A DNA stretch of 38,639 nt from a virus (lineage: Duplodnaviria > Heunggongvirae > Uroviricota > Caudoviricetes). Of this stretch, positions 4,588-6,121 are shown one piece after another (position 1 is the stretch's first letter; every line of letters begins with the position of its first letter). A model generated the notes under the pieces. It worked only from the letters and a program-made list of their open reading frames with translations. It did not search any database and was not told the origin of the DNA. The stretch covers positions 1 to 38,639 of the IMG/VR virus record IMGVR_UViG_2778261594_000006, one strand, 5' to 3'. Made by a program: the position numbers and the translations under genes.

Positions 4588-4884
4588 TCAGTCATTACTG
4601 ATAGCGCCATAGCGTGAGCGGTAATTACGCAGGCGCGGATCGATATATTCAGGGAAGTGGGTATATGTGGCTTTGCGGAATGGTCGGATTGATGTCTGGT
4701 AAATTCGCTCGCGTTCTTCTTTCTCTGCAAGCCATATACAATGGCGAAATTCCTTTTCCTCTTTCGTTTCCTGCGGTAGCGACATTATCAGGTCGTAGTT
4801 TTTTCTGAATTTATCCAGCACCTCCGATACGGAATTGCCGGAACAGCGGCGCGCGTCGTACGCACCATACAGAGGCGCTGGCAT
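4588..4884 (-). CDS. Hypothetical phage protein (98 aa)
   Basis: ATG at 4884 with AGGAG RBS 7 nt upstream; directly downstream of ssb. Confidence 0.5.
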
Positions 4885-4897
4885 GATTTTCTCCTGA

Positions 4898-5413
4898 TTA
4901 AATTGCGTGAATAGCGTGACGAGGGAAGGGGAGAGTTACTGGCGCAAATGGTATATCGTCGTCAAACTCCATAGGTGGTTCGCTGTGATTTCCCTGCTGC
5001 TGAGGTTGCTGTCTTTGTTGCTGACCGTTATTTCGCTGAGGTGAAGACTGTTCATTGCCTCCTTGCTTGCCACCAAGCATTTGCATGGTTCCACCAACGC
5101 CTACGATAACTTCGGTAGTGAACCGATCCTGTCCGCTTTGATCCTGCCATTTTCTTGTCCGCAATTTGCCTTCAAGATAAACCTCAGAGCCTTTTCGCAG
5201 ATACTCGCTGGCAATTTCTGCTAGTTTCCCGCTCATTACCACACGGTGCCACTCCGTCTGCTCCTTTTGCTCTCCAGTTTGCTTATCACGCCATTGTTCT
5301 GACGTAGCAACTGTAAGGTTTGCAAATGCCGTTCCTGATGGTGAATATCTGATTTCTGGATCATGCCCAAGGCGACCAATAATGATCACCTTATTTACGC
5401 CTCTGCTTGCCAT
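4898..5413 (-). CDS. ssb: Single-stranded DNA-binding protein with C-terminal extension
   Basis: OB-fold N-terminus ([18 protein letters not shown]...), Gly/Gln-rich linker, acidic DDDIPF motif followed by 15 extra residues. Confidence 0.9.
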
Positions 5414-6121
5414 TTATGCCGCCTGTTTTAGTTCGTTAACTCTGATGTTCATTACCTGAACGCATTTAGCCTGCGCCTCCTCGTTGCCAGCCATTAATTG
5501 CCAGTCACGCTGATAACGCTCGATGAGTTTTTTCTTGTCAGTTTCTGTTGACGCATAATCGCTGAAGTCTTTCAGGATTTGTTCGCAGTCAACCGATGGA
5601 GATTTCTGGTTGGTATTTTCTGGTGATGGTTTGTTATCTGATGCTGGGATTGCCCATCCCGGCAGCGATGGAGGGAGCCAGTAAAATCCTGTTCCATCCT
5701 TCAGTTTTGCCCTGTGCCACCCCTGCTTTTTATCGAGAGATGTTTGTGCGAAACCTTCCTCAAGGTTATACAGATACCGACCGATTCCCCACTGAACGGC
5801 AGCACGCTTCATTGCACCTGAACGACCACCTTTGACGGCTTCTACCTGCGTGTTTTCAGCAGCATCCCATTTGGTTACCCATTCGGAATCAATCTTGATT
5901 GATATGCCGCATTCAACTCCGCCGTTGTTGGGAATATCGCGGTATTCATTGCGCCATCCTGCTTTGCCGCAAACATCGTCCAGGCGTTTCATGATTGCCC
6001 GATTCGTGACATAAGCCAGCACCATAGCCCACACCTTGCCATCGCGTGTTTTACCGCTTTGCTGTATTCGCCATTCGATATCTTCAGGGCTGAATGGCTC
6101 ATCGAATTTGTTCAAATCCAT
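5414..6121 (-). CDS. Rad52/Rad22-family single-strand annealing protein (phage recombinase)
   Basis: Motifs AYVTNRAIMKRLDDVCGKAGWRNEY and GAMKRAAVQWGIGRYLY typical of the Rad52_Rad22 family; stop abuts ssb start. Confidence 0.75.
   Translation of the reverse strand: MDLNKFDEPFSPEDIEWRIQQSGKTRDGKVWAMVLAYVTNRAIMKRLDDVCGKAGWRNEYRDIPNNGGVECGISIKIDSEWVTKWDAAENTQVEAVKGGRSGAMKRAAVQWGIGRYLYNLEEGFAQTSLDKKQGWHRAKLKDGTGFYWLPPSLPGWAIPASDNKPSPENTNQKSPSVDCEQILKDFSDYASTETDKKKLIERYQRDWQLMAGNEEAQAKCVQVMNIRVNELKQAA

Follow-up and report, generated by a model that had tools for sequence, protein, structure and literature searches.

[quoted passage not shown] Found widely and joined to several unrelated SSB bodies, the tail is conserved, like the tip, as a peptide. 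As an overall explanation we favour, with confidence somewhat better than even, a selected and inherited C-terminal module of SSB that would block canonical docking and offer its own core as a second docking peptide, with an HNH endonuclease gene toggling between capped and uncapped alleles.

The capped tip and its conservation

An extension of 15 residues past DDDIPF, as originally predicted from the window, was borne out as the end of the minus-strand open reading frame of ssb (Table 1); the predicted coordinates and the position of the abc2 ribosome-binding site and start (4884) directly after ssb were also correct. The abc2 ATG occupies positions 4884-4882, and 13 nt separate the ssb stop from the abc2 start. 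The protein was identified as an SSB by Pfam PF00436 (residues 6-105, E=2e-38) and by TIGR00621, against which it scored 184 bits (cutoff 54). Full-length SSB profiles of NCBIfam aligning to their own end (PRK09010, TIGR00621, PRK06341, PRK08763 and PRK06642) all ended at residue 156, and residues 157-171 therefore lie outside all of the SSB family models.

In the AF2 model, the window SSB displayed an OB-type beta barrel (pLDDT 70-80), a low-complexity linker over residues 114-143 (pLDDT <50) and, in the tail, a weak, low-confidence beta-hairpin formed by residues 159-163 and 166-170 (pLDDT about 55-62). Among the features of the SSB family, the OB fold, the disordered linker and the D-D-D-I-P-F motif were thus all found, while the terminal Phe carboxylate was not, as 15 residues follow Phe156. 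The window tail fits the consensus [IV]PF-[AS]P[VI]TLPFPRH[AT][IV][HY][AV][IL]-stop, derived from 116 cluster representatives of capped-tip SSBs, and the gene sits, like those of other capped-tip SSBs, in a module of annealing protein, SSB, an optional exonuclease (exo) and Abc2. The whole window matches P22-like E. coli phages, e.g. CUS-3 and Kapi1. The empty 3' end of ssb, i.e. the allele lacking an HNH cassette, reads GACGACGATATACCNTTTGCNCCAGTAAC.

Table 1 Features of the ssb region of the window, and HNH genes adjacent to ssb in other loci (locus handle before each pair of coordinates)
Feature	Position	Strand	Basis
ssb, capped-tip SSB, 171 aa	4898..5413	-	ORF list, Pfam PF00436, NCBIfam profiles
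OB-fold ssDNA-binding and tetramerisation domain, residues 6-105	5099..5398	-	Pfam PF00436, AF2, pairwise identity
Gln/Pro-rich disordered linker, ~residues 114-143	4985..5074	-	AF2 pLDDT <50, identity 0.46
Acidic tip, internal here, residues 145-156	4946..4981	-	Translation, identity 0.88, site counts
15-codon post-tip tail, residues 157-171	4901..4945	-	Sequence, relatives, consensus, site counts
Phe156 codon	4946-4948	-	Sequence
ssb TAA stop	4898..4900	-	Sequence
Phe156/Ala157 junction, site of the Sf6-type HNH cassette in relatives, empty in the window	4945..4946	-	
Shine-Dalgarno-like AGGAGA of abc2	4890..4895	-	Sequence
abc2 (anti-RecBCD protein 2), next gene of the recombination module	4588..4884	-	Pfam PF11043, E=6e-61
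Single-strand annealing protein (Rad52/Rad22-type N-domain, Erf-type C-terminal region), upstream of ssb	5414..6121	-	Pfam PF04098, E=5e-26
HNH genes adjacent to ssb	L002 1371-1850 (Sf6 gene 26); L007 871-1350; L226, L228, L229/L230 2501-~2990; L231/L232 2001-2435; L233 2001-2438; L234 1218-1655		

The same reading-frame end as in the window was found in phage ECP1, phage HK75 and one E. coli prophage, and in the case of HK75 the ssb region shared only 82% nucleotide identity with the window, yet the tail was present. A 51-nt query covering the tail matched 26 phage records (including mEpX2, mEp235, epsilon34, g341c, CP-1639 and HZ41) as well as 409 of 5,426 complete E. coli genomes, with ~ 70% of an evenly spaced sample of the E. 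coli matches falling within an annotated ssb. Scanning one genome per species located the tail in Escherichia, Enterobacter, Kluyvera, Pseudescherichia, Buttiauxella and Citrobacter, in a result that also included chance matches at approximately the expected number. The tail was present in 116 of the best 120 SSB clusters, at 74-97% identity (Klebsiella species, Citrobacter, Salmonella and Enterobacter). By comparison, only five of 72,556 plasmid records contained it, all of them non-mobilizable E. coli replicons of 30-48 kb, sizes that we take to fit circular phage genomes. A protein query consisting of the tripled tail returned five candidates. An internal match to the degenerate tail pattern in a further locus (L121) was rejected as a chance match, its context being unrelated.

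At least four distinct SSB bodies bear the tail. Besides those of the window and HK75, there is a host-like one whose linker is long and a highly divergent one beginning MAINTI, and all four end in EPPM[DN]FDD[DE]IPF followed by the tail. Alignment with related phage SSBs commonly showed the same extension, which is accordingly not a peculiarity of the window SSB.

Mean pairwise identity among 43 tail-bearing SSBs was 0.46 in the linker, as against 0.86 in the OB domain, 0.88 in the tip and 0.85 in the tail, whose core, PVTLPFPRH, reached 0.96. Distant copies of the tail differed at up to 10 of 45 nt with the peptide kept. When site counts for tail codons 5-15 were confined to sequence sets not selected on these codons, 11 variable sites were synonymous and four non-synonymous (expected non-synonymous fraction 0.73; P=2.7e-4), and the non-synonymous changes were conservative and restricted to the last five residues. 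The internal tip of capped alleles gave 15 synonymous versus eight non-synonymous variable sites (P=2e-6). The tail is under purifying selection at the amino-acid level, and so, in spite of its internal position, is the tip of capped alleles. In view of this selection, the extension is not translated filler in what would otherwise be intergenic sequence.

The HNH cassette and uncapped alleles

Phage Sf6 differs from the window in that its SSB ends ...PPMNFDDSDIPF-stop, with the tip DDSDIPF, and is followed after 9 nt by gene 26, encoding an HNH-type endonuclease whose last 14 residues are specified by the same DNA as the window tail. The same arrangement was seen in CurroJimenez, IME10, N7 and Huey. 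The position of the HNH cassette is exactly between the Phe codon and the tail; it brings its own variant tip and stop, and the HNH reading frame reads on into the tail. Alignment of the window and Sf6 ssb genes revealed eight differences in nt 1-444 and 12 in nt 445-468 (the last 24 nt), a clustering from which it follows that the cassette supplies its own last eight codons and stop.

The frequency of each allele was estimated in 80 viral loci picked by OB-domain similarity only. The SSB with its tail, followed by exo or abc2, accounted for 39-40 loci, and a canonical tip with a tail-bearing HNH for 31; one locus contained an unrelated ES18-type HNH and about six more distant ones had a free tip with a ~80-nt spacer. 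A free tip directly followed by the tail was found in none of the 80. As judged from these alleles, the capped tail is the default state wherever no HNH endonuclease gene has been inserted. In canonical-ended relatives, the stop codon is contributed by the inserted HNH cassette, which takes over the tail, a circumstance that the original prediction had missed.

An HNH-type gene was located 8-11 nt downstream of ssb in all nine contexts examined (Table 1), across at least five unrelated SSB bodies and several annealing-protein families, and the SSB tip upstream of it was always variant (DDSDIPF, DDQDIPF, DDDQDIPF or DDEIPF). Presence or absence of the HNH gene is polymorphic at one fixed site, and the target sequence is altered in carriers. 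The Sf6 gp26-type HNH is probably a homing endonuclease aimed at the conserved tip-coding DNA. The T4 mob genes are free-standing HNH homing endonuclease genes of phages. As with such genes, the cassette is present or absent between genomes that are otherwise 97-98% identical, its position is fixed next to a highly conserved coding target, and the flanks are altered in the carrier allele.

Other endonuclease genes were encountered in the same module. A second, unrelated and AT-rich HNH cassette lies at the ssb/abc2 junction of ES18 (gp47; L145 997-1518) and of another locus (L008 1027-1419), where it replaces the tail and the first abc2 codons; Salmonella phage 103203_sal5, in the context of this AT-rich cassette, has an interrupted abc2 reading frame. 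Between the annealing-protein gene and ssb, a third HNH gene was found (Pfam HNH_3; L131 7042-7509 and L232 1077-1544), and the N-terminus of the SSB beside it reads MSSRGINK in place of MASRGVNK. Every junction of the recombination module seems to have been colonised by endonuclease genes.

Degraded and fused forms of the cassette were also observed. In Klebsiella phage phiKp_30 (L009 1350-1553), only the first ~ 10 and last ~ 20 codons of the HNH gene remain, with a GC-rich inverted repeat (CCCCCTCC...GGTGGGGGAGG) between the two ends and a tail diverged to ...PRHAAYAI. In-frame fusions joined SSB to the HNH C-terminus (P0011 and P0014) or the HNH N-terminus to a DnaQ-like exo (P0053, P0060 and P0063), and P0024 was also listed among the fusions; these fusions show that deletions across the ssb-HNH-exo cluster are frequent in natural genomes. 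The Sf6-type HNH gene that separates ssb from abc2 or exo is left unannotated in many RefSeq E. coli genomes, where it appears as a featureless gap of ~ 500 nt (L010 758-1259; L012 757-1253), and automated annotation thereby often hides the insertion.

Proposed role and origin of the tail

More than a dozen genome-maintenance proteins are recruited by SSB through what is regarded as a universal handle, the free Phe at the end of its tip. In DnaG, the carboxylate of this Phe is inferred to form a salt bridge with a conserved Arg, a feature that the pockets for SSB-Ct in ExoI, RecO, chi and PriA are said to have in common (PMC5872125). Attachment of GFP directly to the SSB C-terminus abolished ExoI binding and was dominant-negative (PMC7293020), and lethality or impaired protein interactions are reported when all SSB copies carry C-terminal fusions (PMC9565051). 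Based on the published role of the free carboxylate and the effects of C-terminal fusions, the cap should prevent canonical docking. Phe156, not being C-terminal, would not enter the SSB-Ct pockets of ExoI, chi, PriA, RecO and DnaG in the canonical manner, and the phage SSB would coat ssDNA without the usual plugging into the host SSB interactome. The concern voiced in the original prediction, that an internal tip could alter partner docking, is plausible on the same published grounds and fits the literature.

According to the reading favoured here, this SSB lineage sits in SAP-SSB-(HNH)-(DnaQ-like exo)-Abc2 modules of P22-like and lambdoid prophages of Enterobacteriaceae. Conservation of the tail core matches that of the OB fold, which makes an independent binding function of the tail most likely. 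The invariant core PVTLPFPRH may serve as a second short docking peptide, with the cognate annealing protein, Abc2/RecBCD or a host factor as candidate partners; a phage SSB C-terminus of this kind of use is represented by HK620, where the last six residues recruit the cognate annealing protein Sak4 (PMC5928155). Co-variation with the annealing-protein C-terminus was considered as a pointer to the partner and rejected, since the C-terminal 45 residues of the annealing protein are common to capped and uncapped loci. Insertion of the Sf6-gp26-type HNH cassette between Phe156 and Ala157 leaves a free variant tip on the SSB and moves the tail to the HNH, with the consequence that capped and uncapped alleles coexist in natural populations. 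A free-tip phage (Sf6) and capped-tip phages (HK75, ECP1, mEpX2 and epsilon34) are all viable, and the cap is therefore not essential.

Simple masking does not explain the continued conservation of the tip under the cap. It is possible that the tip is kept as part of a composite tip-plus-tail motif, through an intramolecular role of the acidic tip, or by post-translational removal of the cap. A further reading, which we entertain tentatively and with distinctly less confidence, sees in the tail a new short linear docking motif. It would turn off contacts of the free-Phe tip with the host interactome (e.g. with ExoI and other nucleases or helicases that would destroy recombination intermediates) and recruit a specific partner, either one encoded in the phage module or one of the host, e.g. 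the sliding clamp, with the tip-targeting HNH toggling between capped and uncapped SSB in natural populations. We take PVTLPF to be loosely like the Hda clamp motif QLSLPL.

Alternatively, the tail may belong to the HNH, the SSB extension being a functionless scar of an HNH reading-frame deletion that appears conserved only because it is young and has been spread by recombination. This we judge unlikely, in spite of the identical final 14-15 residues shared by the HNH proteins of Sf6 and CurroJimenez with capped SSBs, the in-frame deletion fusions common in this region (SSB::HNH and HNH::exo, see above) and one protein (P0194) in which the HNH-type tip DDSDIPF is joined directly to the tail. 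The first half of the tail DNA also modestly resembled a CT-rich tract after the HNH stop in two loci (L233/L234; p about 0.005-0.07 in four comparisons). However, the HNH PHROG profile ends at residue 143, before the tail, AF2 placed a confident fold (pLDDT 94) ahead of an unstructured tail (pLDDT 56-75) in the HNH protein, and HNH homologs in other phages end in unrelated short sequences, which together argue that the tail is not native to the HNH. While nearly all of the best 120 SSB clusters carry the tail, this is the case for only ~ 7 of 77 HNH clusters, and the divergence among capped SSBs (up to 10 of 45 nt, almost all changes synonymous) is unexpected of a young neutral scar. The fact that tail-bearing SSBs are far more numerous and diverse favours SSB, rather than HNH, as the primary carrier, as far as sequences can tell.

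An older origin of the tail by stop loss was approached through the loci in which a canonical-tip ssb is followed by a ~80-nt spacer (L219-L225). No significant similarity between the tail DNA and this spacer was detected (p 0.02-0.6 in 12 comparisons), and ancient stop loss is for this reason only a possible origin. In these loci, which have a canonical tip and no HNH, the ~ 80 nt after the ssb stop contain a hairpin (GGAGGCGGCATAACTTCGCCTCC) and are followed by a divergent abc2-like gene. In another locus (L231 2436-2505), the HNH sits between the Phe codon and TAACCACC of this spacer, and the TAA of the spacer serves as the HNH stop. SSBs ending in ...DDIPFAA-stop, a possible source of the ...AA ends of HNH homologs, were searched for among the viral contigs, and none were present.

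Conservation of the 45 nt could also reflect a signal in DNA or RNA. The CU-rich tract might serve translational coupling or mask the abc2 ribosome-binding site, or the segment might act as a linker for recombination at a mosaic joint or as the recognition site of the endonuclease. Consistent with such a signal, the 45 tail nt are nearly identical in E. coli and Salmonella phages with the rest of ssb at only 82%, the minimum-free-energy fold allows CUCUCC to pair with the abc2 GGAGA, and the neighbours of the tail, which lies at a mosaic junction, vary on either side. We nevertheless regard this explanation as improbable. Distant copies vary at many third-codon positions with the peptide kept, and an RNA-structure explanation in particular is unsupported, because the fold of the tail/abc2 junction was no more stable than that of shuffled sequence (z=+1.4) and the gene after the tail may be either abc2 or that of a DnaQ-like exonuclease, whose ribosome-binding sites differ.

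Equally improbable, in our estimation, is a C-terminal stability or degradation signal (e.g. a ClpX-type tag) limiting a potentially toxic SSB or endonuclease. All tail variants end in a small and an aliphatic residue (AI, VI, AL, SI or SL) after a basic His or Arg, which we take to resemble ClpX C-motifs such as the ...RRKKAI of MuA, and ...AA is a frequent ending of HNH homologs and of early proteins encoded nearby. Yet it is the upstream core PVTLPFPRH that is invariant and the last five residues that are most variable, and 15 conserved residues are more than a degron needs. With regard to the ...AA ends themselves, proteins of the early-left module often terminate in this way (KQAA, LKAA, GEAA, TKAA, SMAA, LSAA), recalling ssrA-like C-termini, perhaps by coincidence; examples include the window annealing protein (...ELKQAA, 5414-5440), eight HNH homologs (P0005, P0006, P0013, P0019, P0033, P0037, P0047 and P0056) and the downstream genes in L229 and L233.

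Finally, an error of sequencing or assembly, or a loss of the stop codon peculiar to the window genome, raised by the original prediction and suggested by the unusual tip position alone, can be dismissed with near certainty, because homologous phage SSBs commonly have the same extension and the identical reading-frame end recurs in hundreds of independent genomes and isolated phages.

Significance and relation to known systems

The SSB family itself is known; what is new is that some phage SSBs form a conserved subgroup with a capped tip, linked to an HNH cassette associated with ssb. A large, natural and selected family of phage SSBs that keeps the tip yet buries it under a cap contradicts a textbook feature of SSB. 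Capped SSBs constitute a natural experiment on the role of a non-terminal tip and may bring to light a docking peptide, together with its partner, that is new to phage recombination, a point of relevance to recombineering systems that depend on compatibility between annealing protein and SSB. Current annotation labels capped and uncapped SSBs identically, and the canonical-looking alleles in the capped-tip group are those with a selfish endonuclease insertion.

Full-text literature searches for the motif and for C-terminal extensions of prophage SSBs found no description of this form, and the GenBank annotation of Sf6 states that gene 26 shares 14 contiguous residues with 'E. coli SSB', and nothing further. 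In a 2025 survey of lambdoid recombination modules, the protein type is named SSB-1 and described as not having been studied experimentally (PMC12315714); the portion of the survey covered here contained no mention of a post-tip extension that we could find.

Compared with E. coli-type SSB (PF00436, TIGR00621/PRK09010), the window protein has the same OB fold, Gln/Pro-rich disordered linker and tip (...PPM[DE]FDDDIPF), but the tip is not C-terminal and 15 conserved residues come after Phe156. Within SSB-1, the Sf6, ES18 and HK75 module types belong to the same family and the same module of annealing protein, SSB, optional nuclease and Abc2 (PMC12315714). The alleles differ in that HK75 is capped, while insertion of an HNH cassette gives Sf6 and ES18 a free tip.

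The SSB of HK620 (PMC5928155) is likewise a phage SSB at the same genomic position, and its C-terminal peptide, which mediates a phage-specific partnership, provides a model for docking of the tail. Unlike the window SSB, it has an unrelated body and a free NDYPPF end with no extension, and its function has been shown experimentally. In C-terminal SSB-GFP fusions (PMC7293020), the tip is made internal by added residues, as in the window; the fusion is artificial and adds a large folded domain, whereas the cap described here is natural and 15 residues long.
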